A stretch of DNA of 64,000 nt from an uncultured Clostridium sp. (GTDB lineage Bacteria; Bacillota; Clostridia; TANB77; CAG-508): assembly GCA_946639585.1 (NCBI GenBank), contig CAMPBS010000002.1, positions 16,994 to 80,993 on the forward strand. Direction: 5' to 3'. The first letter of the stretch is position 1. Every line of letters begins with the position of its first letter. Shown piece by piece: positions 2,449 to 59,007 of this stretch. The notes under the pieces are model-generated. The model was not told the origin of the DNA, did not search any database, and was given only the letters and a program-made list of their open reading frames with translations. The position numbers and the translations under genes were made by a program.

Positions 2449-2490
2449 AAGAAAAAATGCAAAAGATTGTACTTTTGCATTTTTTTTATT
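2449..2490. terminator. bidirectional intrinsic terminator
   Basis: A hairpin (aaaaaatgcaaaagattgtacttttgcatttttttt) sits between convergent genes. Confidence 0.6.
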
Positions 2491-3073
2491 CTTTTTTATT
2501 ATTTACTTTTGTTACATCTTTTTTCAAGTCTTTTTTATCAATAAAACCATTATGATATAATGACCAAACATACATAATTAAAGCAAATAGGGTAGATATT
2601 AATGCTAAAGCGTAGCAAATTAAATCTAGGTTTTTCCAGAAACCTTCAACATTAAATTGCCTGAATATTAATGAAAGAACTATTGCTACATAGAATAATA
2701 CTGTTGCAAGTTTGCCATACCATTTACTATAAACTACAACATCTTTTCCATATAGGAATGAAGCTCCAACTATCATTATAAATTCTTTTACTAAAACTAT
2801 AATTAAAATCCATAGTGGAATTATATTTACTAAAGCTAATGAACCTAATGTACATATTTGTGTTAACTTGTCAGCAAGGGGATCCATTAGTTTTCCAAAG
2901 TTGGAAACCAAATTGAATTTTCTTGCTATAAAACCATCAGCAACATCTGTTATTCCAGATATTGTAAAAAATACGAAGGCTAATATAAATTGTTCTGTAA
3001 ATATGAAATATACTATAAATGGTATTAATAAAAATCTTATTATTGTTAATATATTTGGTACATGTTTAAACAT
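2486..3073 (-). CDS. pgsA: CDP-diacylglycerol--glycerol-3-phosphate 3-phosphatidyltransferase
   Basis: It carries the CDP-alcohol phosphatidyltransferase motif DVADGFIARK...G...DPLADK. The AAGGAG RBS supports the ATG at 3073. Confidence 0.85.
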   Translation of the reverse strand: MFKHVPNILTIIRFLLIPFIVYFIFTEQFILAFVFFTISGITDVADGFIARKFNLVSNFGKLMDPLADKLTQICTLGSLALVNIIPLWILIIVLVKEFIMIVGASFLYGKDVVVYSKWYGKLATVLFYVAIVLSLIFRQFNVEGFWKNLDLICYALALISTLFALIMYVWSLYHNGFIDKKDLKKDVTKVNNKKE

Positions 3074-3100
3074 AATTACTCCTTTTGAGTATTCTATTTT

Positions 3101-3228
3101 AATATAATGATTTTTAATTCCTTGGTGTCGCAATCTCCTTATTTAAAAATACTAGTATGTCGATTGCTCCAGTCGCCCTGCGCTTTGCTCCGGTTGGTCG
3201 CTTACGCGGAATTCAAAATCATTATATT
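3101..3228 (+). repeat. GC-rich structured intergenic repeat element, copy 1 of 3
   Basis: The conserved core (ccttggtgtcgcaa...gctccagtcgccctgcgc...ggttggtcgcttacgcgg) is closed by a 21 bp AT-rich inverted repeat specific to this copy. Confidence 0.8.
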
Positions 3229-3233
3229 AAAAT

Positions 3234-5690
3234 TTAAACTACTCGAAATATTAATTCATTTTCTAAATCTACTACAATATTTTGACCATTTTTTAATTCT
3301 GAGCGAAGGATTTTCTCAGATATTTCATCTTCGAGATACTTTTGAATTGCTCTTCTTAATGGTCTAGCTCCAAATTTTACATTTGTGCCTTTTTCTAAAA
3401 TGTATTTTTTTGCGTTTTCTGTTACTTCCATAGTTATATTTTTTTCTTTTAAAGCTTTTTCAGTATCTTGTAACATTAAATCTACTATTTGAATTAGCTC
3501 TGGTTCTGTAAGTGAGTCAAATACAATTGTTTCATCAATTCTATTTAAGAATTCTGGTCTAAATACATCTTTTAAACTATCTAAAATTTTGTTTTTGTTT
3601 ATTATAGATTTTCCACCAAATCCGATTGAATTATTGTTTAAGTTTGATCCTGCATTTGATGTCATTATAATAATTGTATTTGAAAAATTAACTGTATTTC
3701 CCTGACTATCTGTAAGCTTGCCGTCATCAAGCACTTGTAATAAAATATTAAATACATCAGGATGAGCTTTTTCAATTTCGTCAAATAGAATTATAGAGTA
3801 AGGTTTTCTTTTTACCTTTTCAGTTAATTGACCTGCATCATCATATCCTACATAACCTGGAGGAGATCCAATTAGTTTTGCTGTTGAATGACTTTCCATA
3901 TATTCTGACATGTCAACTCTAATTATTGCATCTTCTGAACCAAACATTTCATAAGCTAATGATTTTGCAAGTTCAGTTTTTCCTACACCAGTAGGACCTA
4001 CAAATATAAATGATGGTGGTCTTTTGGTACTTTGAAGCCCAGCTCTGTTCCTTCTAATTGCTCTAGATACAGCATTTACAGCTTCTTCTTGGCCAATTAC
4101 TCTTTTATGAAGGTTAGTTTCTAAGTTTAATAATTTTTGAGTTTCAGCTTCTGTAATCTTTTTAACAGGTATTTTTGTCCAGTTTTCAATTACATTTGCT
4201 ATATCTTGAACTGTAAGGTTTTTTAATTTCATTTTATTATTTATTGAATCTATTTGTTCAATCAATTGACATTCTTTTGCCTTAAGTTCAGCAGCTTTTT
4301 GATAATCTTCTGTTGAATCAGCTGCAACAACTTCTTCTTTCTCGGCTTGTACTTTTTTTAGTTCTTGACGAAGTAATTCTAATGTGAATAAGTCTTTGTT
4401 TTCTAGATTTATTCTTGAACAAGCTTCATCCAAAATGTCGATTGCTTTATCTGGTAAAAATCTGTCATGTATATATTTTTCAGACATTATTACTGTTTGC
4501 TTAATCACATCAGATGAGATTTTTACTTTGTGATATTCTTCATAATATTTTTTTATTCCATTTAGAATACCAACAGAATCTTCAATGTTTGGCTCTTCGA
4601 CCAATACTTGTTGAAATCTTCTTTCTAAGGCTGTGTCTTTTTCAATGTATTTTCTATATTCTTTTAAAGTTGTAGTTCCAATCAATTGAATTTCACCATT
4701 AGATAAGGCGGGTTTTAAAATATTTGCGGCATTCATAGAATGTTCGCCATCTCCGGCACCTATAATATTGTGAATTTCATCTATAACTAAAATAATATTT
4801 CCGTATTCTCGACATTCATCTATAATGCCTTTCATTCTAGCTTCAAATTGACCTCTAAACTGTGTTCCGGCAATAACTGCTGTCATATCTAAAAGGTAAA
4901 CTTCTTTATTTAAAAGCTTTGCAGGTACATTTTGGTTCGCAATTTTTATTGCTAAACCTTGGGCAATTGCAGTTTTTCCAACTCCAGGTTCACCAATTAA
5001 ACAAGGATTATTTTTAGAACGTCTATTTAAGATTTGTGTAATTCTTTGAATTTCCTTATCTCTACCAATTACAATGTCTAATTCATTGTTTTTGGCTTTA
5101 TTTGTTAGGTTTGTACCATATGTATCTAAATATTTTTTCTTTTTAGATGTTTTTGTTTTTTTCTTTTCAACTTTAACTTTTTTTCTTTCTGAACTATTTG
5201 GATTTCCGTTAGCTTGGGCATGCGCTGCTCCATTATTTCCAAACATATTGAAAATTGAACCTAGGGGAATAGCTGCACCGGCAATTTTTGGAGATTCGTC
5301 ATCTTCTTCATCTTCATCCATTCCATCAGCAGAAGGACCAAAAGTGAAGGCTCCCTCAATATTTTGAATATCTTCCAAATTTATATTTTCGGCCAAATCT
5401 TTAAATATTGTTTCAAATTGTTTAGACATATCTTGCATATTTATATTATTTAAATTATTATTACCATTTGGATTAGTATTGTTTACATTTTGGTTTAAAT
5501 CAGGGTTAGTATCTTGTTTTGTACTATCAATTATGTTTTTTTGCCTGTTTAAAACATCTATTACATCAATGCCTCTTTTTTGAGCGCATTCAGCACATAA
5601 ACCTTCCATAGTGCTTTTTCCATTTTCTTGTTTTTCAAAAAAAAGTATAGCTGCATTTTTATTACAATCAGAACATAACATACTTTTCAT
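3234..5690 (-). CDS. clpE: ATP-dependent Clp protease ATP-binding subunit, ClpE-like (N-terminal zinc finger, two AAA+ modules)
   Basis: It has an N-terminal CxxC...CxxC zinc finger, two Walker A motifs (GEPGVGKT and GPTGVGKT) and an Asn-rich linker. Confidence 0.85.
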   Translation of the reverse strand: MKSMLCSDCNKNAAILFFEKQENGKSTMEGLCAECAQKRGIDVIDVLNRQKNIIDSTKQDTNPDLNQNVNNTNPNGNNNLNNINMQDMSKQFETIFKDLAENINLEDIQNIEGAFTFGPSADGMDEDEEDDESPKIAGAAIPLGSIFNMFGNNGAAHAQANGNPNSSERKKVKVEKKKTKTSKKKKYLDTYGTNLTNKAKNNELDIVIGRDKEIQRITQILNRRSKNNPCLIGEPGVGKTAIAQGLAIKIANQNVPAKLLNKEVYLLDMTAVIAGTQFRGQFEARMKGIIDECREYGNIILVIDEIHNIIGAGDGEHSMNAANILKPALSNGEIQLIGTTTLKEYRKYIEKDTALERRFQQVLVEEPNIEDSVGILNGIKKYYEEYHKVKISSDVIKQTVIMSEKYIHDRFLPDKAIDILDEACSRINLENKDLFTLELLRQELKKVQAEKEEVVAADSTEDYQKAAELKAKECQLIEQIDSINNKMKLKNLTVQDIANVIENWTKIPVKKITEAETQKLLNLETNLHKRVIGQEEAVNAVSRAIRRNRAGLQSTKRPPSFIFVGPTGVGKTELAKSLAYEMFGSEDAIIRVDMSEYMESHSTAKLIGSPPGYVGYDDAGQLTEKVKRKPYSIILFDEIEKAHPDVFNILLQVLDDGKLTDSQGNTVNFSNTIIIMTSNAGSNLNNNSIGFGGKSIINKNKILDSLKDVFRPEFLNRIDETIVFDSLTEPELIQIVDLMLQDTEKALKEKNITMEVTENAKKYILEKGTNVKFGARPLRRAIQKYLEDEISEKILRSELKNGQNIVVDLENELIFRVV

Positions 5691-5775
5691 TTCTCCTTAC
5701 TTTTATATAAAATTACAATATATATATTATCTCAAAAACCTTAATAAGTCAAGCTAAACTTTTGAAATAAGCAAT

Positions 5776-5827
5776 CTGGGGACACTTCCCAAAATGTACA
5801 ATTTTTGAACATTTTGGGAAGTGTCCC
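5776..5827. repeat. palindromic element GGGACACTTCCCAAAATG-N-CATTTTGGGAAGTGTCCC (copy A)
   Basis: It is a 20 bp perfect inverted repeat with a 12 nt spacer, lying in the clpE upstream region. Three related copies occur elsewhere in the window. Confidence 0.75.
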
Positions 5828-5928
5828 TAAAATGTTCAAAATTATTTAAATTTATATTGCAATAAAATTTGGTAAATGTTATAATATACTTAGTAAAAAA
5901 AGATTTACAAAAGAAAGAGGGCGAAAGA

Positions 5929-36569: not shown

Positions 36570-37577
36570 ATGCTAGATGATAGAAAAAAGAGAGTTTTGC
36601 AAGCTATTGTAGAGGAATACATAAACACTGCAGAACCAGTAAGTTCAAATGCTTTAACCAAAAGCAATGGTTTAAATTATAGTAGTGCTACAATAAGAAA
36701 CGAGATGGCAGACCTAGAAAAGAAAGGCTATCTAGACAAAACACATACATCATCAGGTAGAATTCCATCTGAAAAAGGTTATAGGTACTATGTAGATGAA
36801 CTTATAAATGATAATGACATAAGTGTAGAAGAAATAAAATACATAAGTTCAAAATTAGAAACAAAAGTAAATGAAATTGAAGATTTAACAAAACTTACGG
36901 CAACAACAATTTCAGAAATAACACATTACACAACATTATCAATTGGACCTAAAAATGATGAGCAATTAATTGAAGAAATTAAATTTGTTCAATTAGGTAC
37001 AAGAATGTTAATGGCAGTAATTTTAACAGATAATGGTTTGGTAAAAGAAACAATTATAAAATTTGATGAAGACATTACAGCAAAACAAGTAGAAACAGTA
37101 AATTATATGTTTAATCAAAAGTTGAAGGGAAAGCCATTAGAAACAATAAAAGGTCCATTAGAAGAATACTTATTTGACGAAATGCAATATAGCGTAAATG
37201 TTATAAAACCTATAATTGAACAGATTAAAAAGGTATTGGCAGAAGATGAAAAAATCTATTTAGAAGGTGCAAATAAGTCTTTCGATTTGCCAGAATTTAA
37301 TAGTTTAGAAGTAGCCAAAAACTTCGTAAATGTGCTAGACACAAAAGAGCTTATGGAAGATATGCTAAACTCAGGATTTGCTCAAGACATAAATGTATAT
37401 ATCGGGCAAGAAAATGAAAAAGATGAGTTAAAAGATTTTAGTGTAGTTACATTTAAACATAAGGTGGGTAACAAAGATTTAGGAACAATAGGAATAATAG
37501 GACCCAAGAGAATGGATTATTCAAAGGTTATTTCTGTAATGAAATACATTAGTAAAAAACTAAATGATAATAACTAA
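36570..37577 (+). CDS. hrcA: heat-inducible transcription repressor HrcA
   Basis: It has the HrcA N-terminal wHTH and lies in the operon context. Confidence 0.9.
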   Translation: MLDDRKKRVLQAIVEEYINTAEPVSSNALTKSNGLNYSSATIRNEMADLEKKGYLDKTHTSSGRIPSEKGYRYYVDELINDNDISVEEIKYISSKLETKVNEIEDLTKLTATTISEITHYTTLSIGPKNDEQLIEEIKFVQLGTRMLMAVILTDNGLVKETIIKFDEDITAKQVETVNYMFNQKLKGKPLETIKGPLEEYLFDEMQYSVNVIKPIIEQIKKVLAEDEKIYLEGANKSFDLPEFNSLEVAKNFVNVLDTKELMEDMLNSGFAQDINVYIGQENEKDELKDFSVVTFKHKVGNKDLGTIGIIGPKRMDYSKVISVMKYISKKLNDNN

Positions 37578-37719
37578 TTTGATATATATTATTTTTTAAA
37601 TCCTTGGTGTCGCAACTTCCAGATTTTAAAATTGACTTATCTGTAAGTTGCTCCAGTCGCCCTGCGCTTCGCTTCGGTTGGTCGCTTACGCGGATTTTAA
37701 AAATAATATATATCAAATT
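37576..37719 (+). repeat. GC-rich structured intergenic repeat element, copy 2 of 3 (between hrcA and grpE)
   Basis: It has the same conserved core as copy 1, closed by a different, perfect 28 bp AT-rich inverted repeat. Confidence 0.8.
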
Positions 37720-37750
37720 ATCAATATAATTTATAGAAAAGGAGAAGAAG

Positions 37751-40210: not shown

Positions 40211-41374
40211 ATGGCAGGAAAAAAAGATTATTACGAAATATTGGGTGTTAATAAATCTGCAACAGACGATGAGCTAAAAAAAGCATATCGTAAACTTGCA
40301 AAAAAATATCACCCAGATGCTAATCCAGATAATAAAGCAGAAGCGGAAGCAAAATTCAAAGAAGTAAATGAAGCTTATGAAGTGCTTTCTGATTCTCAAA
40401 AAAGAAAAATGTATGACCAATTTGGAACTGCAGACCCATCAGGATTTGGCGGAGGTCAAGGACCATTTGGCCAAGGTGGATATTATTCATATACAGGTGG
40501 TTCTGGATTTGATGGTTTTGGCGACTTTGGAGATTTAGGAGACATCTTTTCTTCATTCTTTGGTGGAGGATTTGGTTCAAGAGCAAGAAAACAAAGTAAT
40601 GGCCCACGCAAGGGTTCAGACATAAATTTACGTATGGATATCACTTTTGAAGAAGCATTTTTAGGAGTTGAAAAAGAAGTAGTTGTATCTAGAAATGAAC
40701 AATGTCCTAATTGCCATGGAACAGGTGCAAAACCAGGAACAAATCCTATGAAATGCCCTGAATGTAATGGAACAGGCCAAGTTCGTCAAGTTCAAAATAC
40801 AATATTAGGCCAAATGCAAACAACAAGAACATGTTCTGCATGTCATGGAACTGGAGAAATAATAAAAGAACCTTGCGAGACTTGTAAAGGCAAAGGAACA
40901 ATAAGAAAACAAGCAAAAATAAAAGTCAAAATTCCAGCTGGAATTGATGATGGCCAAACAGTAGTATTAAGAGGAGAAGGTGAGCCTGGTACTAAAGGTG
41001 GACCAAAAGGTGATTTATACATAACTGTAGGTGTTAAAAAACATAGCATATTCACAAGAAAAGGAAACAATGTGTTGTGTGAAATTCCAATAACAATAAC
41101 ACAAGCAACATTAGGTGCTGAGCTTGAAATTCCAATGGTAGATGGAAGCAAAGAAAAATACAAAATTGCAGAAGCAACACAAACAGGAAGTAAATTTACA
41201 ATAAGAAACAAAGGCTTCAAATATGTAAATTCAAATATGCAAGGAGATTTTGTATTCACAGTAGTAGTACAAACACCAAAAAAACTAACAAAAGAACAAA
41301 GGGACTTATTAACACAATTAGCGAAAACAATGAACGAACAACCACCGGTAAAGAAAAGGGGATTGTTTGGGTAA
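40211..41374 (+). CDS. dnaJ: molecular chaperone DnaJ
   Basis: It has a J domain (HPD), a G/F region and four CxxCxGxG zinc-finger repeats. Confidence 0.95.
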
Positions 41375-41381
41375 AATAAAA

Positions 41382-41412
41382 ACTCTGTATTTAAGCAAAA
41401 TACAGAGTTTTT
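41382..41412 (+). terminator. intrinsic terminator, member of the repeated AAAACTCTGTAT...ATACAGAGTTTTT hairpin family
   Basis: A near-identical hairpin recurs at 47114-47145 and a related one at 44322-44350. Confidence 0.65.
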
Positions 41413-41527
41413 GCTTATTTGAAAAAATTTTTAAATAACTACTTGACAGCGACCCCCAATTTATATATAATGCAAACATGCAAACATCAATTTGCAAAAC
41501 AAATATTTTTAAAAAGGATGTGGATAT

Positions 41528-42304
41528 ATGGAAACAAACAAATTAAAAACAATCTCAAATTTATTTGAAGGAAAAGAAATTAGGAGTGTGTGGGATTCAG
41601 AAAAAGAGGAATATTATTTTAGCGTTGTAGATGTAATAAGTGCTTTAACGGACAGTAATAATCCAAGACATTATTGGGCAGTTTTAAAATCTAGGTTAAA
41701 AATAGAGGGAAGTGAAGTGGTCACAAATTGTGACCAGTTGAAAATGTTAGCTCCAGATGGGAAAATAAGATTAAGAGATGCAATGATTACCAAAGACATT
41801 TTAAGATTAATTGAATCAGTTCCTAGTCCCAAAGCAGAGCCATTTAAATTATGGTTAGCACAAATGGGAAGTGAAAGGATTGACGAAATATTTGATCCAG
41901 AAAAAGCTATAAAAAGAGCAATAGATTATTACAGAAATAGAGGGTATTCAGATGACTGGATTGAAAGAAGATTAAAAGGAATATTAGATAGAAATAAATT
42001 AACAGATGTATGGAAAGAAAATGGAATTAAAGAGAATTACGAATTTGCAGTTTTAACAAATGAGATTTACAAAACCTGGTCTGGAATGAAAGCATCAGAG
42101 TATAAGGCTTTTAAAGGAATAAGAAAAGAATCTTTAAGAGATAATATGTCAGATATAGAAGTTGCACTTACAGATTTAGGCGAAATAGCTACAAGAGAGT
42201 TAGCTAAAAAGCACAAACCACAAGGCTTAAAAGAAAATAAAAAGATAGCAAAAGAAGGTGGGGAAGTGGCTAAAACTGCAAGAAATGATTTAGAAAAAAA
42301 TTAG
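41528..42304 (+). CDS. Bro-N domain protein (phage antirepressor / DinD-like)
   Basis: It has a Bro-N-like N-terminal region (SVWDSEKEEYYFSVVDVISAL...FKLWLAQMG). Confidence 0.6.
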   Translation: METNKLKTISNLFEGKEIRSVWDSEKEEYYFSVVDVISALTDSNNPRHYWAVLKSRLKIEGSEVVTNCDQLKMLAPDGKIRLRDAMITKDILRLIESVPSPKAEPFKLWLAQMGSERIDEIFDPEKAIKRAIDYYRNRGYSDDWIERRLKGILDRNKLTDVWKENGIKENYEFAVLTNEIYKTWSGMKASEYKAFKGIRKESLRDNMSDIEVALTDLGEIATRELAKKHKPQGLKENKKIAKEGGEVAKTARNDLEKN

Positions 42305-42464
42305 GAGAAACAGTTATAAGTAAAGAAAACGCATTAAATTATAAATATTCAGATAACAATAAATTAAACAAAGAAAACCAAAAGACTATAAAAAAAGCAG
42401 AAAAAAGGAAAGAGATTAAGTAAAAAAATACAGATGTTGAAGAAATCTTATATTCTATTTTATT

Positions 42465-42692
42465 TTATTTTTTCTTTGGATATGGTTTTATTTCATCGGT
42501 TAAACCTAAAATATAATCAGTAGATGTTTTATAAAATGAGGCTAGTTTTATTAAATGGTCAATTTGAATTGTATTTTTTTCATTTTCGATTTGAGAATAA
42601 CTATTTTGTTGAATTCCTAAAAACTTTGCTATTTCAGCTTGTTTTATATCATTATCTTCTCTAAGTTCTTTAATTCTTAACATCGCACTCAC
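42465..42692 (-). CDS. XRE-family HTH transcriptional regulator (Cro/CI-type)
   Basis: The HTH region is QAEIAKFLGIQQNSYSQIENEK. Confidence 0.8.
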   Translation of the reverse strand: MSAMLRIKELREDNDIKQAEIAKFLGIQQNSYSQIENEKNTIQIDHLIKLASFYKTSTDYILGLTDEIKPYPKKK

Positions 42693-42816
42693 CTCAAAAA
42701 TAATTCTATAATATCTTTGAAAATGATATTGACAATTATCTTTGATAATGATATAAAAGAATTATCTTTACTAAAGATAATTGCAAAATTAGAACTAATA
42801 AAAAGGGGGACGAAAG

Positions 42817-44311
42817 ATGAAGAAAGAAGAAAAAAGAAACAAAGGAATTACGCTTATAGCATTAATAATCACAATTATAGTATTATTAATTTTGGCTCGG
42901 AATAACAATAAATGCACTAACAGGAAGTGATTCAGCACCTGCCAAAGCAAATGAAGCAGAGCAAAAAAATGATATAGGTTCAGCAAAAGACCAAATCAGC
43001 TTAACAGCAATAAATGCCAAAACTGATGCATATGATACAGCATATGTAGGAAATGGAGTATCAAGTTCAGAAGCAGCAACAACAATAGGACAAGCAGTAA
43101 TAGATGCTGTATTACCAATGAATGGAACAAATACGGGAAAGGCTTCAATATCAGTAGTGCAAGAAGAAAATGCAGGAGTAAAAGGAAATGCACTAATTAC
43201 AATATCAACAAGAGATTTTGAAATAGAAGGAAAAATAACTTTGCAAGATGGGATATTAACATGGGGAGAAATAGAAGATAATGTTCCTAGAATAAAAGGA
43301 ATTCCAACAAGTTTAATATTAAAATCAGGAGAAAAGAAAGACTTTAATGCAACTTTAAAAGGAATAACAGGAACAATAAATTGGAAAGTAGAAGAAGGTA
43401 GTGCTAAATTTATATTAGCAGATGAAAGCAAAGCAACAGAAACAACAGGAGAAAATGTAAAATTAGAAATATTAGATATAGCAAATAATAATGAAACTGT
43501 AATAATAACAGCAAAAGTAGAAGACAAATGCACAGCAACTTGCGAAATAACAGTAGAAAAAATCCTAAGAGCAAAAGATGTTTTAATTCCAAATCCATCT
43601 GGAACAACCGAAGCAGAAAAAAGTCCTTATGTATATTACACAATGAATGGACAAACAGAACCAACATTATGTAGGGTGCTGTATAATGAAGGAACTCCAG
43701 AAGATAACGGATATGGAATACAAATAATAACTGTCGGTACTGTAGGAAGTGTGGCATTAGGATTAGACGATGAAAATGTTGATGGAACATATTTGGCAAA
43801 AGTAAAAAAATCATATAATAATTCAGTTGCAAATTTAAATAAAAAAGCTTATGATCTTAGAAATTCTAATTTATCAGATTATGCTAGATGTGTTGGATGC
43901 TATCCAATGGGTATTCCTATTATTAATCCAAATGAGGATACTACAGGTAATATAACATTATCTGGTTCAAATGCTAGTATAACCGATTTAAAAATGCCTG
44001 ATGAAAACTATGAATATGATATTTCAAGAATGAATTCACTTGGAATTGCTGGTGCAGGAAATACATATTGGTTTGCATCTAGATATTGTAAAAATGATGG
44101 TAGTAGTGGAAATCAAATAGGTTTATGGTTTGGTTCATCAGTGGCGTTAAATGAAGGAAATGGTCTAGGTCGCATTAATGTTGGATATTATGTTAATTGT
44201 TATAGTATAACTTTGTATTTTAGACCAATATTTTATATAAATCCTAATATAAAAATAGATAGCGGCTCAGGAACATCAGCAGACCCGTACATACTAAAAG
44301 CAGGAAATTAA
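42817..44311 (+). pseudogene. pilin-like N-terminal segment fused to a large secreted domain, interrupted by a +1 frameshift near 42898
   Basis: The ATG at 42817 encodes MKKEEKRNKGITLIALIITIIVLLILA and then hits a stop. Shifting frame continues GITINALTGS... into the long ORF 43118-44311. The N-terminus is paralogous to the gene at 8480. Confidence 0.55.
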
Positions 44312-44427
44312 ATAAAATCAAACTCTGTATTATTTCAATACGGAGTTTTAATTTGTACAAATCTCTTGCTACTCACAGCAACTTATGATACAATTCAAAA
44401 TGAAAAAACAAAAGCGGGGGATTACAA

Positions 44428-45183
44428 ATGAGTGCAAGGAAAAGTTACAAAAGTAGCAAAAAAATGAGCAAAGAACAAATAATAACATCAATTATTTTAT
44501 TTATAATAGTTGTTGCGTTTAACTATTTTTATGAGATAATGAGTAAATCACATGAAAGTGAAGCAAACTCAAATATCTTTGGTAAAACATCATATTCAAA
44601 TTTAGTTGATGTACCAGATTATTCAGGCGAAATATGCGTAATGTTAAATGATAACAAGCCATACTTCAAAGAAGAAGAGTATACCACAAAAGCATTTGAA
44701 AACTATAGCGAACTAGACGCTTTAGGAAGATGTGGAGTAGCTTATGCAAATATCTGTAAAGAAACAATGCCACCAAAAGGTGATGAAAGAGGAGACATCA
44801 GCTCAGTTCGTCCAACAGGATGGAAACAAACTAAATGTAATGGGGAATATTTATATAATAGATGCCATTTAATTGCTTATTGTCTTTCTGATGAAGATGC
44901 TAATAAACAAAATTTAATAACTGGAACAAGATATTTTAATACAGAAGGAATGTTGCCAATAGAAAAGCTTGTTTTAGAATATATGAACAATAATAAAGAT
45001 AATCATGTGTTATACAGAGTAACGCCGGTTTTTAAGGACAAGAATCTTTTAGCAAGTGGAGTAGAGATGGAAGCTTATTCAGTGGAAGACAATGGAAAAC
45101 TATCTTTCAATGTATTTGTTTATAATGTTCAACCAGGAGCAAACTTAAATTATGCAACAGGAGAATTAATCAAAAACAATTGA
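44428..45183 (+). CDS. EndA-family membrane-anchored DNA-entry/non-specific nuclease
   Basis: An N-terminal TM anchor is followed by motifs TGWKQ, NRCHLIAY, VLYRVTPVF and LSFNVFVYNVQPGANLNYATGEL. These parallel pneumococcal EndA (PGWHQ, [40 protein letters not shown]). Confidence 0.7.
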   Translation: MSARKSYKSSKKMSKEQIITSIILFIIVVAFNYFYEIMSKSHESEANSNIFGKTSYSNLVDVPDYSGEICVMLNDNKPYFKEEEYTTKAFENYSELDALGRCGVAYANICKETMPPKGDERGDISSVRPTGWKQTKCNGEYLYNRCHLIAYCLSDEDANKQNLITGTRYFNTEGMLPIEKLVLEYMNNNKDNHVLYRVTPVFKDKNLLASGVEMEAYSVEDNGKLSFNVFVYNVQPGANLNYATGELIKNN

Positions 45184-45288
45184 CAAATTATGTAAAAGTA
45201 TATATAATCACTCTATATTTAAATCTTATTGCTATATTTCAATAGTAAAATTTCCCAAAAACAAATTTAAATAGGAGAGTGATTTTTA

Positions 45289-45978
45289 TTGAATTTAGAT
45301 ATATTCAATGATTTAGTTAATGATGTAAAAAACAGCAATGAAATTCAAAATCTTATAAAAGAAGTAAAAAAATATTTAGAAAACAATATAATAAAGAATG
45401 ATGTAAAGGAGGAAATAACATTGGTTAATCCTACTTATGATAGTGAAAGAATAATCACAAAATATAGAGATGAAATGCTAACAAAGAGGTTAGAGATTTT
45501 AAACAACTATGCCCAAAATACTAAATATAAAGGAGAAATGTACTACATCTATAGTAAAAATTCTGAAAATGAAAACAATTATAATCTTTGCATTTGTGAA
45601 GAAGATAAAAGCCATATCGTTATAGAAAAAAGCCAAGAAGAACTACCTTCAGGTGCAATAGTAGGTAGTGTCTTGAGAAAAAATAATGATAGATTTATTA
45701 TAGATGAAAAAGCAACTAAAACTATTTCTGAAAAATTAGATAACATGAAATCTCAATTATTAGAAGAACAAAGAGAATTTTTAGCTAGTCAAAGAATAGA
45801 AGGACATATGTATGAGATGGCTGAAAAAAGTGAAGATAGAGTATTGCTATTCGATATAACAGCAGGAAACGATGAAGGCTTTGAAGAAATAGATTTTCCT
45901 TTGGAATTACTAAATGAAAGCAAAGAGGGAGAGTTATTTGTTTTTGAAGATGGAGAATATATAAAAGTTGACGATTAG
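45289..45978 (+). CDS. hypothetical protein (possible nuclease partner/immunity protein), TTG start
   Basis: An AGGAGAG RBS precedes the start, the ORF lies immediately downstream of the nuclease, and the protein is acidic. Confidence 0.4.
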   Translation: MNLDIFNDLVNDVKNSNEIQNLIKEVKKYLENNIIKNDVKEEITLVNPTYDSERIITKYRDEMLTKRLEILNNYAQNTKYKGEMYYIYSKNSENENNYNLCICEEDKSHIVIEKSQEELPSGAIVGSVLRKNNDRFIIDEKATKTISEKLDNMKSQLLEEQREFLASQRIEGHMYEMAEKSEDRVLLFDITAGNDEGFEEIDFPLELLNESKEGELFVFEDGEYIKVDD

Positions 45979-46022
45979 AAAATATTATGTTAATATGTAA
46001 TTAGTTTTAATTATAAAAGCTT

Positions 46023-46096
46023 GCGAACGTAGCCAAATTGGGAAGGCAACTGCTAGGAGTAGTAGAGATGAGAAGGTTCGAATCCTTCCGTTCGCA
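46023..46096 (+). tRNA. tRNA-like sequence with a defective anticodon arm (probable pseudo-tRNA or integration scar)
   Basis: It has an acceptor stem (GCGAACG/CGTTCGC), a canonical T-arm (GAAGG-TTCGAAT-CCTTC) and a D-arm. The anticodon stem (CTGCT/AGTAG) closes only a 6 nt loop. A terminator hairpin follows at 46101-46130. Confidence 0.4.
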
Positions 46097-46278
46097 TAAA
46101 AATAGAGACTTTGTGTCTCTATTTTTTTATTCTATTATTTTTGTGTTTTAAAAAATATAAAAAATACTTGACAGTCAATATAAATCTATATATAATACAA
46201 ACAAGAATTTGAATACCAATATATATAAATGGAAAATAATGGATGCAAAAATACAATTAAAAGAAAGGAAAACTTAAA

Positions 46279-47115
46279 ATGGATGAAAAAAAGTTAATTA
46301 ATATTACAGAGGAAAATTTTGAAAGTATAAAACATATGGATGAAGATGGAATTGAATTTTGGTATGGAAGAGAATTGATGAAGGTATTAGATTATTCAAG
46401 TTGGGATAAATTTAAAAAAATTATAAAAAAAGCAATGATAGCGTGCGAAAATAGCCAAGTATCAATAAAGCAATGTTTTTCCCAATTGGGAAAAACATCA
46501 AAAATGCCTAATGGTGGAGAAAAGTATGTTGAAGATTTTGATTATAAATTAAATAGATATGCATGTTATTTAGTTGCTCAAAATGGAAGTTCAAAGAAAA
46601 AAACTATTGCACTTGCTCAAACTTATTTTGCAGTACAAACAAGAAAACAGGAATTGACAAGAAAAGAATATGAACAACTAAGTGAAGATGAAAAGAGATT
46701 ATATACAAGAAAGAATGTAAGAGATAAAAATAAATATTTATTTGATACAGCAAAAATAGCAGGTGTACGAAATTATGGGAAATTTAATAATTATGGTTAT
46801 AGAGGATTATACAATGGTGAAACAGCAAAAGATATTGCAAATAGAAAAGGTATATCAGAAAAAGAAGATATTTTAGATTACATGAGTAGTACAGAATTAG
46901 CTGCAAACCTATTTAGAATTACTCAAACAGACGAGGTTCTTAAAAATAAGAATATAAATAATGAAGATGAGGCTTGCAATACTCATCATAAAGTAGGACA
47001 AGCAGTTAGGCAAACTATAAAAAGAATTGGTGGTACAATGCCAGAAGATTTACCAACACCAGCCAAAAGTACAAAACAAATTGAAAAAGAGAAACAAAAG
47101 AAATTAAAAGCATAA
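46279..47115 (+). CDS. DNA-damage-inducible protein D (DinD)-like, Bro-N family
   Basis: It has a DinD-like pattern (FWYGRELMKVLDY...RYACYLVAQNG...IALAQTYFA). Confidence 0.6.
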   Translation: MDEKKLINITEENFESIKHMDEDGIEFWYGRELMKVLDYSSWDKFKKIIKKAMIACENSQVSIKQCFSQLGKTSKMPNGGEKYVEDFDYKLNRYACYLVAQNGSSKKKTIALAQTYFAVQTRKQELTRKEYEQLSEDEKRLYTRKNVRDKNKYLFDTAKIAGVRNYGKFNNYGYRGLYNGETAKDIANRKGISEKEDILDYMSSTELAANLFRITQTDEVLKNKNINNEDEACNTHHKVGQAVRQTIKRIGGTMPEDLPTPAKSTKQIEKEKQKKLKA

Positions 47116-47267
47116 AAATAAAAACTCTGTATATAAAAAATACAGAGTTTTTGCATATAAAGAAAAATTTTTCAAAAGCCTCTTGACATCGAACATAATT
47201 TCATATATAATATAAACACACAAACAATAATTCGTAAAACAAATATTTTAAAAGGATGTGATTGTAT

Positions 47268-47579
47268 ATGAGAAAAGTAAATGGAAAAAGAAAAACAAAA
47301 TTAAATGTAAAAACAATATTGTTAATAGTTTTAGCTATAATATCAATTAGTTTAATAACATCTGCAAACAAGTCATATTCAAAAGTAGAGATACAATACA
47401 AAACAGAGTATGCTAGTTCAGGAGATACATTGTGGTCAATAGCGGAGCGTGAAAGTGAAAACAACAATTATTATAAAGATAAAGATGTAAGAGAAATAAT
47501 CTATGATTTAAAGAAAATAAATAATCTTTCAAACTCAAATTTGGCAGAAGGACAAGAAATAAAGATACCAAAGATTTAA
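47268..47579 (+). CDS. LysM-domain membrane protein, YneA-like (candidate SOS cell-division inhibitor)
   Basis: It is about 103 aa with an N-terminal TM helix and a C-terminal LysM domain (YASSGDTLWSIAE...LAEGQEIKIP). Confidence 0.55.
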   Translation: MRKVNGKRKTKLNVKTILLIVLAIISISLITSANKSYSKVEIQYKTEYASSGDTLWSIAERESENNNYYKDKDVREIIYDLKKINNLSNSNLAEGQEIKIPKI

Positions 47580-47628
47580 TAAAAAACTAGTTTTAGGTTA
47601 AACTAATCCCAAGGAATGGGAGGCAAAA

Positions 47629-48627
47629 ATGTTTAAACCTAAAACTATTTTTTTTGAAAAAGAAATTGTAAATTATAAGCTTGGAAAAGAGCTAATGGAA
47701 AAATACAAAGAAATTCCTAAAATAGAAATAGCTAATCACAACAACATAGAAGAACTGCGAAAAAGTGAGAACAAAGAGTTCCTAAATCTAAAAAACAACT
47801 TAATAATAGGAGTTAGGAAAACACACAAATTTGTAGAAAATCATAAAGTATCAGATTATTTGGTGCCATACACATCTTCAGGTTGTAGTGCTGCATGTAT
47901 GTATTGCTATTTGGTTTGCAATTATAACAAATGTAGCTATTTAAGACTATTTGTAAACAGAGAGCAAATGTTAGATAAAATAATAAAAACTTCAGAAAAA
48001 TCCGAAAGAGAATTAACCTTTGAAATTGGTAGTAATAGTGATTTAATTTTAGAAAATACTATAACAGGAAACTTGCCATGGACAATAGAAAATTTCAAAA
48101 ATACTAAAAAAGGAATGCTTACATTTCCTACAAAATTTGATATGGTAGATGATATTCTAAATGTTGCCCATCAAGGAAAAGTAATTACAAGAATGAGTGT
48201 AAACCCAGATGAAATAATAAAACAAGTAGAGCTTGGTACATCAAGGCTAAAAGGTAGAATAGAAGCGATAAACAAGCTAAAAGAAGCGGGGTACAAAGTT
48301 GGAATTCTTATTGCACCTGTAATAATGGTAGACAACTGGAAAGAACTTTATTCAGAGCTTATAAAACAATTAGAAAGAAATCTGAGTGAACAAGTAAAAA
48401 AAGAATTATTCTTTGAAGTGATTTTTATGACATACAGCTATGTGCACACAAAAATAAATGAAGAAGCATTTCCCAATGCCATCAATTTATACAATAAAGA
48501 ACAAATGACAGGGAGAGGTAGAGGAAAATATATGTACAAAAATGAACTTAGAAAAGATGGAGAAGTGTTTATGCGCGAGCAACTTGGAAAGTGTTTTCCT
48601 AATAATAAAATCTTATATGTAGTGTGA
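47629..48627 (+). CDS. splB: spore photoproduct lyase (radical SAM)
   Basis: It has a CxxxCxxC motif (CSAACMYC) and the size and pattern of SplB. Confidence 0.7.
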   Translation: MFKPKTIFFEKEIVNYKLGKELMEKYKEIPKIEIANHNNIEELRKSENKEFLNLKNNLIIGVRKTHKFVENHKVSDYLVPYTSSGCSAACMYCYLVCNYNKCSYLRLFVNREQMLDKIIKTSEKSERELTFEIGSNSDLILENTITGNLPWTIENFKNTKKGMLTFPTKFDMVDDILNVAHQGKVITRMSVNPDEIIKQVELGTSRLKGRIEAINKLKEAGYKVGILIAPVIMVDNWKELYSELIKQLERNLSEQVKKELFFEVIFMTYSYVHTKINEEAFPNAINLYNKEQMTGRGRGKYMYKNELRKDGEVFMREQLGKCFPNNKILYVV

Positions 48628-48644
48628 TTTTTTGCGTTAAAATG

Positions 48645-48673
48645 TTGACAAATAAGCCATATTAACATATAAT
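48645..48673 (+). promoter_or_regulatory. sigma-A-type promoter, TTGACA-17-TATAAT, of the cysS leader
   Basis: ttgacaaataagccatattaacatataat is a perfect consensus with 17 nt spacing. Confidence 0.7.
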
Positions 48674-48701
48674 ATTACTAAGTTTAAAAGGAGAAAATAA
48701 A

Positions 48702-48743
48702 ATGAGTAATAAAAATATAATCTTTAATTGTTGTTGTAGATAA
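48702..48743 (+). CDS. candidate leader peptide MSNKNIIFNCCCR with three tandem Cys codons
   Basis: An AAAGGAG RBS sits 8 nt before the ATG. The ORF carries TGT TGT TGT and is followed by alternative hairpins and a terminator. Confidence 0.5.
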   Translation: MSNKNIIFNCCCR

Positions 48744-48817
48744 AATACTCTATCTATTGTAGATAAGAGTATTAATTAGTGTACCCTACAATAGAGATTA
48801 TATTTATAATAAAGTAT

Positions 48818-51323: not shown

Positions 51324-51466
51324 CTATAAATTTATATTATTTTTTATGCCTTGGTGTCGCAACTTCCGGATTTTAAAATACTAGTCTGTAAGTTGCTCCA
51401 GTCGCCCTTCGCTACGCTACGGTTGGTCGCTTATGCGGCATTTCAAAATAATATAAATTTATATAG
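51324..51466 (+). repeat. GC-rich structured intergenic repeat element, copy 3 of 3 (between esterase gene and rlmN)
   Basis: The conserved core carries compensatory changes and is closed by a different AT-rich inverted repeat. Confidence 0.8.
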
Positions 51467-54450: not shown

Positions 54451-55128
54451 ATGAAAAAGTATGTATGCGAATTTTTAGGTACATTCATTTTGGTACTTTT
54501 AGGATGTGGAAGTGCAGTTTTAGCAGGAGGATACATAGGAGTTGTAGGAGTAGCATTAGCTTTTGGTTTATCAATAGTTGCAATAGCTTACTCAGTAGGT
54601 AGAATATCTGGTGGGCATGTTAATCCAGCTGTATCACTTGCTATGTTAATTAATGGAAAAATATCAGTAAAAGACTTTTGCGGTTATGTAGTAGCACAAA
54701 TTGCTGGTGCTTTTGCAGGAAGTGGAATATTAGCACTAATTGTTAGTATGACAGAATTAAGAAATGCAGGATTAGGGGCAAATGGATTTGGAGATGCATC
54801 TGCTGTAGGATTAACAATGGTAGGAGCATTAATAGTTGAAATAATAGCTACATGTATATTTGTATTAGCTATATTAGGAGTAACACATAATGATAAACTT
54901 TCTTCAAAAGCAGGTATTGTTATAGGATTAGTACTTGCATTAGTTCATTTAGTATGTATTCCATTAACAGGAACTTCTGTAAATCCAGCAAGAAGCTTAG
55001 CTCCAGCAGTTATACTTGGAGGAGAAGCTTTATCACAAGTTTGGGTATTTATAGTTGGACCACTTGTTGGTGCAGTAATTGCAGGTTTATTATGGAAATT
55101 CCTAGCAAAGAACGAAGAAGAGATATAA
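54451..55128 (+). CDS. aqpZ: aquaporin (MIP family)
   Basis: It has two NPA boxes (SGGHVNPAVS and NPARS). Confidence 0.9.
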   Translation: MKKYVCEFLGTFILVLLGCGSAVLAGGYIGVVGVALAFGLSIVAIAYSVGRISGGHVNPAVSLAMLINGKISVKDFCGYVVAQIAGAFAGSGILALIVSMTELRNAGLGANGFGDASAVGLTMVGALIVEIIATCIFVLAILGVTHNDKLSSKAGIVIGLVLALVHLVCIPLTGTSVNPARSLAPAVILGGEALSQVWVFIVGPLVGAVIAGLLWKFLAKNEEEI

Positions 55129-55188
55129 TAAACAAATCAAATGAAAATATTTAAAAAGTTAAAATGTTTAAACATTTTAACTTTTTTT
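54983..55188 (+). repeat. 206 bp direct repeat, left copy (aqpZ 3' end plus terminator)
   Basis: It is identical to 57732-57937. Confidence 0.9.
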
Positions 55189-55290
55189 AGTTAGTATAAA
55201 CTTTTTTGTAGAAAAATTCAAAAAAATGACAAGTACACTTGACAAAAAACATAATATATGATATTTATAAAATATAGAAGAGGTGGTTTT

Positions 55291-57731: not shown

Positions 57732-57937
57732 ATCCAGCAAGAAGCTTAGCTCCAGCAGTTATACTTGGAGGAGAAGCTTTATCACAAGTTTGGGTATTTA
57801 TAGTTGGACCACTTGTTGGTGCAGTAATTGCAGGTTTATTATGGAAATTCCTAGCAAAGAACGAAGAAGAGATATAATAAACAAATCAAATGAAAATATT
57901 TAAAAAGTTAAAATGTTTAAACATTTTAACTTTTTTT
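57732..57937 (+). repeat. 206 bp direct repeat, right copy (orphan aqpZ 3' fragment plus terminator)
   Basis: It is identical to 54983-55188. Confidence 0.9.
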
Positions 57938-58004
57938 TATTATATCTTTATTTTTCTTTGAAAATATGGTAAAATATACAAGATTTTTAAAAATGGAGAA
58001 GAAA

Positions 58005-58862
58005 ATGGAAAGATATCAAGAAATAGAAAGAAGTCTTATAACTAAATATAGAAAAACAATATGGACAAAATTCATAAAAGGAATCCAAGAATACGACATG
58101 ATACAAGATGGGGACAAAATTGCAGTATGTATATCAGGTGGTAAAGATTCAATGCTACTTGCAAAATGTTTTCAAGAACTTTTAAAACATGGCAAAATGA
58201 ACTTTGAATTAGTATTCATGTGCATGAATCCAGGGTATAATGAAGAAAATAAACAAAAAATAATCGAAAATGCTAAAATATTAAATATTCCTTTAACAAT
58301 GTTTGAAACAAAAATATTTGATACAGTTGTTAATATAGATGACCATCCATGTTATATATGTGCTAGAATGAGAAGAGGGCATTTATACAAAAAGGCAAGA
58401 GAATTGGGATGCAATAAAATTGCACTTGGACACCATTTTGACGATGTAATAGAAACAATATTAATGGGAATGATTTATGGTGCGCAAATGCAAACAATGA
58501 TGCCAAAATTACACAGTTCATTTCATGAAGGGATGGAACTGATTAGACCATTATGTTTTGTTAAAGAACAAGATATAATAAATTGGAGAGATAGAAATGG
58601 TCTTGAATTTATCCAATGCGCTTGTAGATTTACTGAAAATGAAGCAAAAGCAAATGATGATGAAATAGGCAAAAGGGAAGAGATGAAAAGGCTTATAAGA
58701 GAGCTTAGAAAAAAATATAAAAACGCAGATATGAATATATACAGAAGTGCACAAAATGTGAATTTAAATACTCTTTTATCATATACTAAAAATGGGGAAA
58801 CACATACATTTTTAGAAGATTTTAATAAAAGAAAAAAAGAAATTCAAGATAAGGCCCAATAA
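58005..58862 (+). CDS. ttcA: tRNA 2-thiocytidine(32) synthetase TtcA
   Basis: It has the PP-loop SGGKDS and Cys motifs (CYIC ... CAC). A GGAGAAG RBS precedes the ATG at 58005. Confidence 0.8.
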   Translation: MERYQEIERSLITKYRKTIWTKFIKGIQEYDMIQDGDKIAVCISGGKDSMLLAKCFQELLKHGKMNFELVFMCMNPGYNEENKQKIIENAKILNIPLTMFETKIFDTVVNIDDHPCYICARMRRGHLYKKARELGCNKIALGHHFDDVIETILMGMIYGAQMQTMMPKLHSSFHEGMELIRPLCFVKEQDIINWRDRNGLEFIQCACRFTENEAKANDDEIGKREEMKRLIRELRKKYKNADMNIYRSAQNVNLNTLLSYTKNGETHTFLEDFNKRKKEIQDKAQ

Positions 58863-58933
58863 TATATATTGTTTTTAAACAATATATATTATTGACATAT
58901 TTGGCATTTAAATATTATAATATAAATAGAAAC

Positions 58934-59007
58934 GCGGGTATAGTTTAATGGTAGAATCCCATGCTTCCGACCTGGTGGTGAGGGTTCGATTCCCTCTACC
59001 CGCTCCA
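58934..59007 (+). tRNA. tRNA-Gly (anticodon UCC) with encoded CCA
   Basis: GCGGGUA acceptor stem, GUUUAAUGGUAGAAU D-arm, CUUCCGA anticodon loop (UCC), GAGGG-UUCGAUU-CCCUC T-arm and 3' CCA are all present. Confidence 0.85.

Follow-up and report, generated by a model that had tools for sequence, protein, structure and literature searches.

Classical MITEs carry conserved terminal repeats that match those of a parent IS, and are bordered by a target-site duplication of fixed length. The closest described entity to the elements analyzed herein is the REPIN, for which compensatory changes on both sides of the hairpin are common (PMC3116915). For Clostridium operons, two reports describe selective RNA processing and stabilization through intergenic stem-loops (PMC4423207, PMC10311766). 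In a stretch of 64,000 nucleotides from an uncultured Clostridium sp. (the whole stretch is referred to as the window), three GC-rich intergenic copies of an element were noted in a first-pass annotation, which took compensatory changes in two helices as an argument for a selected secondary structure. We found that the three loci belong to a hitherto undescribed family of DNA repeats, small, non-coding and able to form hairpins, in uncultured rumen Clostridia. The elements probably constitute a new MITE/REPIN-like family of non-autonomous palindromic DNA repeats, the stems of which would be explained by copying between arms at the DNA level and not by selection on RNA.

Members of the family in the window and in related genomes

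All three copies in the window lie on the same strand, and each consists of a 25-29 bp AT-rich inverted repeat around a CpG-rich core of about 90 nt, within surroundings of 24-34% GC. Copy 1 (type A; 3096-3233, plus strand) is composed of a 5' arm at 3096-3121, a core at 3120-3209 and a 3' arm at 3208-3233, the arms being 26 nt in length and 96% complementary. In copy 2 (type A; 37575-37720, plus strand), arms of 29 nt with 97% complementarity (37575-37603 and 37692-37720) enclose the core at 37602-37693. Copy 3 (51324-51466, plus strand) represents a variant of type A, with CCCTTCGCTACGCTACGG and TTATGCGGC; its arms are located at approximately 51324-51350 and 51438-51466 and its core at 51349-51439, the pairing involving 51325-51343 with 51445-51463 plus inner pairs, and complementarity over the arms of the three copies ranges from 96 to 100%. 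The core includes seven CpG within 44 nt together with direct repeats of GTCGC. The sequences CCTTGGTGTCGCAA, GCTCCAGTCGCCCTGCGCT and CGGTTGGTCGCTTACGCGG each occur exactly 3 times in the window against about 0 expected from shuffles, and a scan of the window with the family profile yielded no fourth copy. The three copies with a conserved core are a genuine repeat family, present on the plus strand at the places first noted. The arms, described as perfect and 21-28 bp long, are real but slightly longer (26-29 nt) and 96-97% complementary at copies 1 and 2, and their reported difference in sequence between copies holds for the outermost 5-10 bp, whereas the arms as a whole are related and share the motif ATATATT(A/G)TTTTT.

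Copy 1 is situated between a clpC-like gene (3234-5690, minus strand) and a pgsA-like gene (2486-3073, minus strand), and since both flanking genes are on the minus strand, it is antisense to local transcription. Copy 2 occupies the hrcA|grpE spacer of the hrcA-grpE-dnaK-dnaJ cluster and copy 3 the esterase|rlmN spacer, each following the stop codon of a plus-strand gene. All three copies abut a stop codon, in accordance with the initial description of copies placed right after stop codons in operon spacers, but that description does not fit the antisense location of copy 1 between minus-strand genes.

A different repeat of the window is a direct repeat of 211 nt with 99% identity (54983-55193 and 57732-57942), of which the first copy comprises the 3' end of an open reading frame (54451-55128) and a downstream hairpin, and the second copy appears to be a duplicated fragment.

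Outside the window, about 100 further copies overall were found in low-GC rumen Clostridia MAGs and metagenomes. In a scan of species-representative genomes with an exact pattern, 19 copies were located in four MAGs of rumen Clostridia, besides one chance match, and a metagenome scan gave about 85 true loci, all of 21-31% GC; a total of 94 complete copies was recovered, 82 of them distinct, and one comparator sequence (L031) carries a copy identical to copy 1. The comparators are all MAG or metagenome assemblies, and many metagenome contigs terminate inside the element, as is expected for a repeat. The family is confined to one clade of uncultured, spore-forming rumen Clostridia of about 27% GC, and no match to it was detected in any of three collections, of plasmids, phages and viral contigs.

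The element, short (about 130-230 bp), non-coding and dispersed in many copies, has a stem of typically 25-31 bp, formed by AT-rich arms that are homologous between copies through the motif given above and in which, about 7 bp away from the core, a mismatch or bulge is conserved in the form of T·C, CT·TC or a bulged A. The core is asymmetric, CpG-rich and modular: it comprises a 5' block, TTGGTGTCG(C/A)AA, P2, a hairpin of variable length, a 3' block, CTCCAGTCGCCCT(G)CGCT..CGGTT..CTTACGCGG, and, as an option, a hairpin of 51-53 nt. Five types were distinguished. Type A, the type of the window, is also found in RGIG2630 and RGIG8360; type B, in which P2 starts with GTCGAAATC, in UBA9784 and L071; type C, a B or A element with the 51-53-nt hairpin after CGGTT, in UBA9784, bin.48 and L035; type D, with a long perfect P2 and GAGCGGC in its 3' block, in bin.48, L035 and L071; and type E, with TTGTCGTCGCAA and a different 3' block, in L001 and L125. 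Types A and E occur in one genome group, and B, C and D in another. The third of the three GTCGC motifs pointed out in the core is not conserved in the other subfamilies, which have GTTCGCC, GAGCGGC or other sequences in its place. The type B 5' block, GGTGTCGAAATC (for example L004:4444-4460), contains TGTCGAA where type A has TGTCGCA; TGTCGAA corresponds to what we take to be the Spo0A-box consensus, and this resemblance is probably a coincidence.

A match to a known RNA family was also looked for. Rfam gave none for the element at gathering threshold, and the best entries at E up to 10 were plant miRNA hairpins, with scores of 23 bits where 100-140 would be required. Elsewhere in the window, a glmS ribozyme/riboswitch was recognized at 17353-17506 on the minus strand (Rfam RF00234, 83 bits).

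Hairpins consisting of arms only, with the arm motif of the family, were found in the window (58857-58894) and in L014, L020, L133 and L078. Since the hairpin at L078:14366-14405 retains ACGCG, the final bases of the core, at least some of them are deletion products. The hairpin in the window is a perfect 18-bp AT-rich palindrome, CAATAATATATATTGTTT/AAACAATATATATTATTG, devoid of a core and located just upstream of a tRNA gene (58934-59004), and may be such an arms-only relic. A second family combines similar arms with an unrelated core (CTCTCCCAACT..hairpin..GTCGGTCCCCACAGCGTT), and is represented in the window at 12426-12523 and in L030, L036, L047 and L080. The window copy has AT-rich arms of 26 nt (TGAAATCAAGATATATTATTTTTGCT / AGCAAAAATAATATGTCTTGATTTCA) and a 46-nt core ending in GGTCCCCACAGCGTT, and its relatives in the other four sequences have a longer central hairpin. 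The existence of a second family with the same kind of arms suggests that the arms are the common working part.

Orthologous sites and the placement of the element

The sites of the window were compared with those of relatives through contigs carrying GrpE and PgsA homologues. At hrcA|grpE the element is present in the window and in L131 (GrpE 95%), and the site is empty, with a spacer of 16-21 nt, in L125, L126 and L132 (94-95%), L127 (87%) and L129 (81%). The esterase|rlmN site has arms and a type A core in the window; in L125 (17815-17985) these same arms, specific to the locus (TTATGCC / GGCATT), surround a type E core, and in L127 the site is empty. At clpC|pgsA the window has arms and core, L133, which belongs to the L125 genome (PgsA 96%), has the arms alone, joined at GAATT, and L134, L135 (94%) and L136 (85%) have neither, with spacers of 10-12 nt. 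The L125/L133 genome is from ERZ27256909 (k141_375247), and L127, from GCA_017511085.1, is an example of an element-free relative. From the comparison of the window with L125/L133, it turned out that neighboring proteins are 94-96% identical and yet the two genomes differ at all three sites, at each in a different way. Some intergenic sites with an inserted element are empty in close relatives, and the element is placed beside the 3' ends of genes, pointing either way. Whether a change was insertion or deletion, and an arms-only hairpin a relic or a precursor, is read from a few sites in an unrooted comparison. The decisive junctions, those of an arm with the type-specific ends of the core and that of the arms-only hairpin, are known from assemblies and are short enough to be covered by single reads.

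As to the gene order around copy 3, cysS-esterase-rlmN follow directly after the dnaJ/SPL genes in L125, and the window has several extra kilobases and a tRNA gene (46023-46096) between them (about 41000-48800), which may be an insertion. Within that interval lies a direct repeat of 140 nt (41374-41513 and 47114-47253; 74% identical) that carries a promoter-like TTGACA..TATAAT segment.

The first-pass annotation had proposed a search for target-site duplications as a check of mobility, and the outcome was mixed, with presence/absence polymorphism among close relatives but no clean duplication. At hrcA|grpE, one of the two or three filled/empty pairs available overall, TAATTT stands at either side, the right side having 12 additional bases, and no duplication was visible at clpC|pgsA. 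The sequence AATTC at the core of copy 1 was considered as a target duplication of 4-5 bp and rejected, as it has no counterpart in copies 2 and 3 and results from the self-complementary center AATT.

The element also persists at orthologous sites. It is retained in pairs with flanks of 85-94% identity, and even of about 75%, and the core is 94-99% identical between orthologs against 86-93% for the flanks, both comparisons being biased in so far as most orthologous pairs were ascertained through the element itself. What occupies a shared site can nevertheless change. The 53-nt hairpin module is present in L055 and absent from L076, of which the flanks are 97% identical and the elements otherwise identical, and L046 and L092 again differ in presence of this module; some orthologous sites are occupied by type A in one genome and by types B, C or D in the other. 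Between L011 and L080, arms and flanks are collinear and the core is reversed, and L035 and L018 form a second inverted pair. Such differences in whole core or module between orthologs with the same arms are probably produced by ectopic gene conversion between copies, core reversal by recombination between the element's own arms, and the arms-only hairpins by decay through internal deletion.

The inverted orthologs bear on the possibility that a protein of the host or of a mobile element uses the element as a DNA site, with the (T)CGC/GTCGC repeats as a binding array, in recombination, inversion or nucleoid organization, or, in one version, as an invertible switch flipped by a recombinase. The core is indeed conserved as primary sequence rather than as structure, its seven CpG in 44 nt and direct GTCGC repeats would suit an array, and function at such a site would not depend on orientation relative to genes. 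Inversion, however, was observed only between diverged orthologs (2 of about 30 pairs) and never between near-identical strains, all 14 or more near-identical pairs having the same orientation; the core contains no promoter-like site above chance, no recombinase gene is consistently near the element, and the sites are dispensable in close relatives. We thus consider this explanation quite improbable.

Of 82 copies, 67 have the 3' end of a gene no more than 40 nt from one of their own ends, and relative to this adjacent gene the element has the same orientation in 38 cases and the opposite in 29. A coarser comparison, with gene direction and GC skew, counted 12 same and 8 opposite, and a strand bias relative to replication or transcription was not found. 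The frequent location at gene 3' ends, the AAAAG..CTTTT outer ends of some copies, and an ordinary GC-stem, T-tract terminator in L047 at the site orthologous to the filled L083 site would be expected if the elements were unusually large intrinsic (Rho-independent) terminators, possibly bidirectional, that replace ordinary terminators at gene ends. Against this stands the lack of T-tract enrichment after the stem, the T fraction in the next 9 nt being 0.38, equal to background, and only 7 of 71 copies having six or more T in these 9 nt. The terminator scan made no call at the element, and copy 2 is situated between hrcA and grpE, which in a close relative are separated by a spacer of 16 nt, so that a strong terminator at this position would cut off grpE-dnaK. 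Such a terminator role is highly improbable, and both the terminator and the invertible-switch readings have little support.

For the more probable MITE/REPIN-like family, we searched for a partner that might move the element. Neither an arm pair of this kind 0.4-6 kb apart nor one enclosing a gene-sized segment, as expected of an autonomous parent, was found in 1.05 Mb of related sequence, and no transposase or other partner gene was found in the sequence compared. A gene for a 283-aa Y1/RAYT-like protein is located next to hrcA in L131 (637-1485; Pfam Y1_Tnp, 1e-11; NCBIfam REP_Tyr_transpos, 65 bits, below the cut-off of 80). It was rejected as the mobilizer, being flanked by a different repeat, GGGACAC(T)TTC, and absent from the window and all other loci. 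REP/REPIN-like sequence of the same kind, arranged as inverted repeats, flanks this gene (L131:560-640 and 1480-1540) and occurs in the window at 5772-5840 and 17634-17671 as an inverted doublet of GGGACACTTCCC units (TTTTGGGAAGTGTCCCTAAAA).

Pairing, folding and the origin of the stems

On both strands, the whole element is much more stably folded than shuffles (z -3.7 to -8.0), and the core alone folds no better than shuffled sequence on either strand (z -0.3 to -2.2); the signal of the whole element thus comes from the arms. Covariation was analyzed with RNAalifold and by pair counting on 66 diverse members, among which strong covariation was detected solely in the outer stem and P2, all other proposed pairs being invariant. 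Paired cells amount to 94.6% against 79% in shuffles, and 341 cells are changed on both sides. The hairpin arms do remain complementary while their sequence changes, and the internal helix first seen as GCAATC..GATTGC versus GCAACTT..AAGTTGC is real and holds in the 66 members (C-G/A-U, U-A/C-G). One-sided changes, including one-sided G·U states, are almost absent, swaps from A-U to U-A are many, G·T (20) is no commoner than A·C (34) over all stems, and nearly all stem changes lead from one Watson-Crick pair to another. This pattern indicates Watson-Crick complementarity on both strands and not selection acting on a single strand of RNA. For the 3' domain, a conserved fold (CCAGUCG/CGGUUGG, with UNCG or GNRA loops) was considered as well and discarded, as it showed no covariation and an energy no better than that of shuffles, and the proposed pairings are not retained in types B, D and E.

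The origin of the copy-specific outer stem could be traced at two sites of the window. The outermost pairs of copy 2 are TAATTTG/CAAATTA. Their left half includes the stop codon of hrcA, the position of which is constant among all relatives, as well as bases present in the empty site of L127 (TAATTTAAAG); the right half is absent from all empty sites. At copy 1, an outward extension of the palindrome at 3083-3095, TTTTGAGTATTCT, is an imperfect (10/13) inverted copy of the 3' coding end of clpC, AAACTACTCGAAA (3236-3248); the extension is also present in L133 and absent from the empty sites L134-L136. Because coding sequence and a stop codon cannot have come with a mobile element, the complements on the opposite side are inverted duplications of host flank. 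Insertion of the element into pre-existing terminator hairpins is contradicted at both hrcA|grpE and clpC|pgsA, where the empty sites have no palindrome. One diverged pair points the opposite way: the element of L083 stands between TCTAAA and TTTAGA, and at precisely this position L047 has a palindrome, TCTAAA|TTTAGA, so that some copies may have been inserted into a palindromic target.

We propose that one arm, or its flank, is copied into the other when intrastrand template switching or fold-back synthesis occurs on the long hairpin, by which arm mismatches would be corrected to compensated pairs and the palindrome extended outward into host sequence. Conversion of a one-arm mismatch into a compensated pair by template switching would explain the covariation of the stem. 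Judging from the sequence patterns, the perfect and copy-specific complementarity of the arms would then be a DNA-level product of arm-to-arm copying. That the covariation reveals a selected RNA structure, one of the two options given in the first-pass annotation, was not supported. The covariation is confined to two plain hairpins, the outer stem and P2, the rest of the core being invariant and folding no better than shuffles, there is no excess of G·U, the orientation to genes is mixed and orthologous copies can be inverted, and two sites of the window have a copy-specific outer stem that duplicates ancestral host flank in inverted form. Covariation beyond simple hairpins, tolerance of G·U and a single functional strand, by which a generic structured ncRNA is recognized, were not found.

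These data also bear on a role of the element as cis-acting structured RNA in operon spacers, in which the 25-30 bp duplex would be a signal for RNase III, other processing or stabilization. Selection for pairing in the RNA would maintain this duplex, by which polycistronic mRNAs would be split or protected and a core RNA of about 100 nt might be released. In agreement with such a role, the spacers occupied by the copies all look transcribed, and in each the element adjoins a stop codon without covering the next ribosome-binding site. The stem can form on either strand, the GC-rich core is conspicuous in a genome of 27% GC, cores are more conserved than flanks, and copy 2, within the hrcA-grpE-dnaK cluster, has no obvious terminator tail; for Clostridia, control of operon stoichiometry by intergenic stem-loops has been documented (PMC4423207, PMC10311766). 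The element is, however, found in both orientations relative to transcription and inverted between orthologs, so that a sequence-specific core RNA cannot be its common function. In addition, there is neither G·U enrichment nor an Rfam match, folding of the core is not significant, relatives with 94-96% identical neighboring proteins differ in having the element, its arms alone or neither, and the outer stem is copied from host flank. A cis-acting RNA role, unlikely as the general explanation, cannot explain mixed orientation, inversions and flank-derived stems, but it might exist as a side effect. By analogy with the Clostridium stem-loops (PMC4423207), such a side effect might take the form of an RNase III-type processing site in operon transcripts.

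Orthologous cores are more conserved than neighboring coding DNA, which fits a host function as well as gene conversion. Most likely, conservation of the core sequence reflects recognition by a putative trans-acting protein, such as a transposase or recombinase, the alternative being a host-level role. A further proposal, rather unlikely in our estimate, is that the core is a cassette of about 90 nt that moves into and out of the tips of AT-rich hairpins and flips within them, or else that RNase III excises it from the transcripts of operons, giving a stable small RNA of a new kind. The cassette would account for same arms with different cores, arms-only sites and the second family of similar arms and unrelated core; its driver would be a putative hairpin-recognizing enzyme, with the insertion chemistry or repair copying the host flank in inverted form. 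To our knowledge, such inverted copying of host flank at insertion is a mode of transposition not described for bacterial MITEs.

Implications and comparison with known systems

The family of palindromic DNA repeats proposed herein calls for caution in covariation-based RNA discovery, as perfect "compensatory" stems can arise in DNA palindromes without RNA selection, and here the stem even includes a host stop codon and coding bases. It also offers a compact system for the study of dispersed repeats in an abundant uncultured rumen lineage, in which insertion, inversion, core exchange and hairpin decay, processes that shape intergenic DNA and break metagenome assemblies, are readable from natural variation. 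If the core is recognized by a dedicated enzyme or affects processing of operon mRNA, the element would be of a new type in the genome biology of Firmicutes, and the operon with copy 2 between hrcA and grpE provides a natural test case for an effect on expression.

The intergenic stem-loops of Clostridium operons resemble the present element as stable hairpins located directly after stop codons; they are simple, gene-specific and of one orientation, with no dispersed family sharing a conserved core (PMC4423207, PMC10311766). An inverton has a promoter, an invertase and both orientations within a population; in the present family, the orthologs L011/L080 and L035/L018 are inverted, the near-identical pairs all agree in orientation, and there is no promoter above chance.

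Quasipalindrome correction, or fold-back (template-switch) mutagenesis, is known to us as a process that explains perfect Watson-Crick arms, swaps of A-T to T-A without intermediates, and inverted duplication of an adjacent flank that lengthens a palindrome. It is, however, a mutational process and not an element family, and its action here is deduced from the patterns in the sequences. The bacterial MITEs known to us, such as Correia/NEMIS, RUP, ERIC and bcr1, are likewise 100-200 bp in length and intergenic, with inverted-repeat ends, subtypes formed as mosaics of modules, insertion polymorphism between strains and likely co-transcription with neighbors. In contrast to classical MITEs, the present element has copy-specific termini, no parent IS within 1.05 Mb and no consistent duplication, and the first-pass annotation was correct in setting its arms apart from the identical terminal repeats of a classical MITE, their outer 5-10 bp differing between copies.

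REPINs are similar in being short, non-coding, intergenic, multi-copy and non-autonomous, in forming a long hairpin in single-stranded DNA or RNA that is kept by compensatory changes, and in persisting vertically at their loci for long periods. They are, however, mobilized by RAYT Y1 transposases, and no RAYT is linked to the present element. Moreover, a REPIN is symmetric, with conserved 16-mers and REP palindromes at its two ends and a variable middle, whereas the ends of the present element vary and its asymmetric center of about 90 nt is conserved, so that the pattern of conservation is reversed. Unlike both classical MITEs and REPINs, the element of the rumen Clostridia is least conserved at its termini and most conserved at its center.
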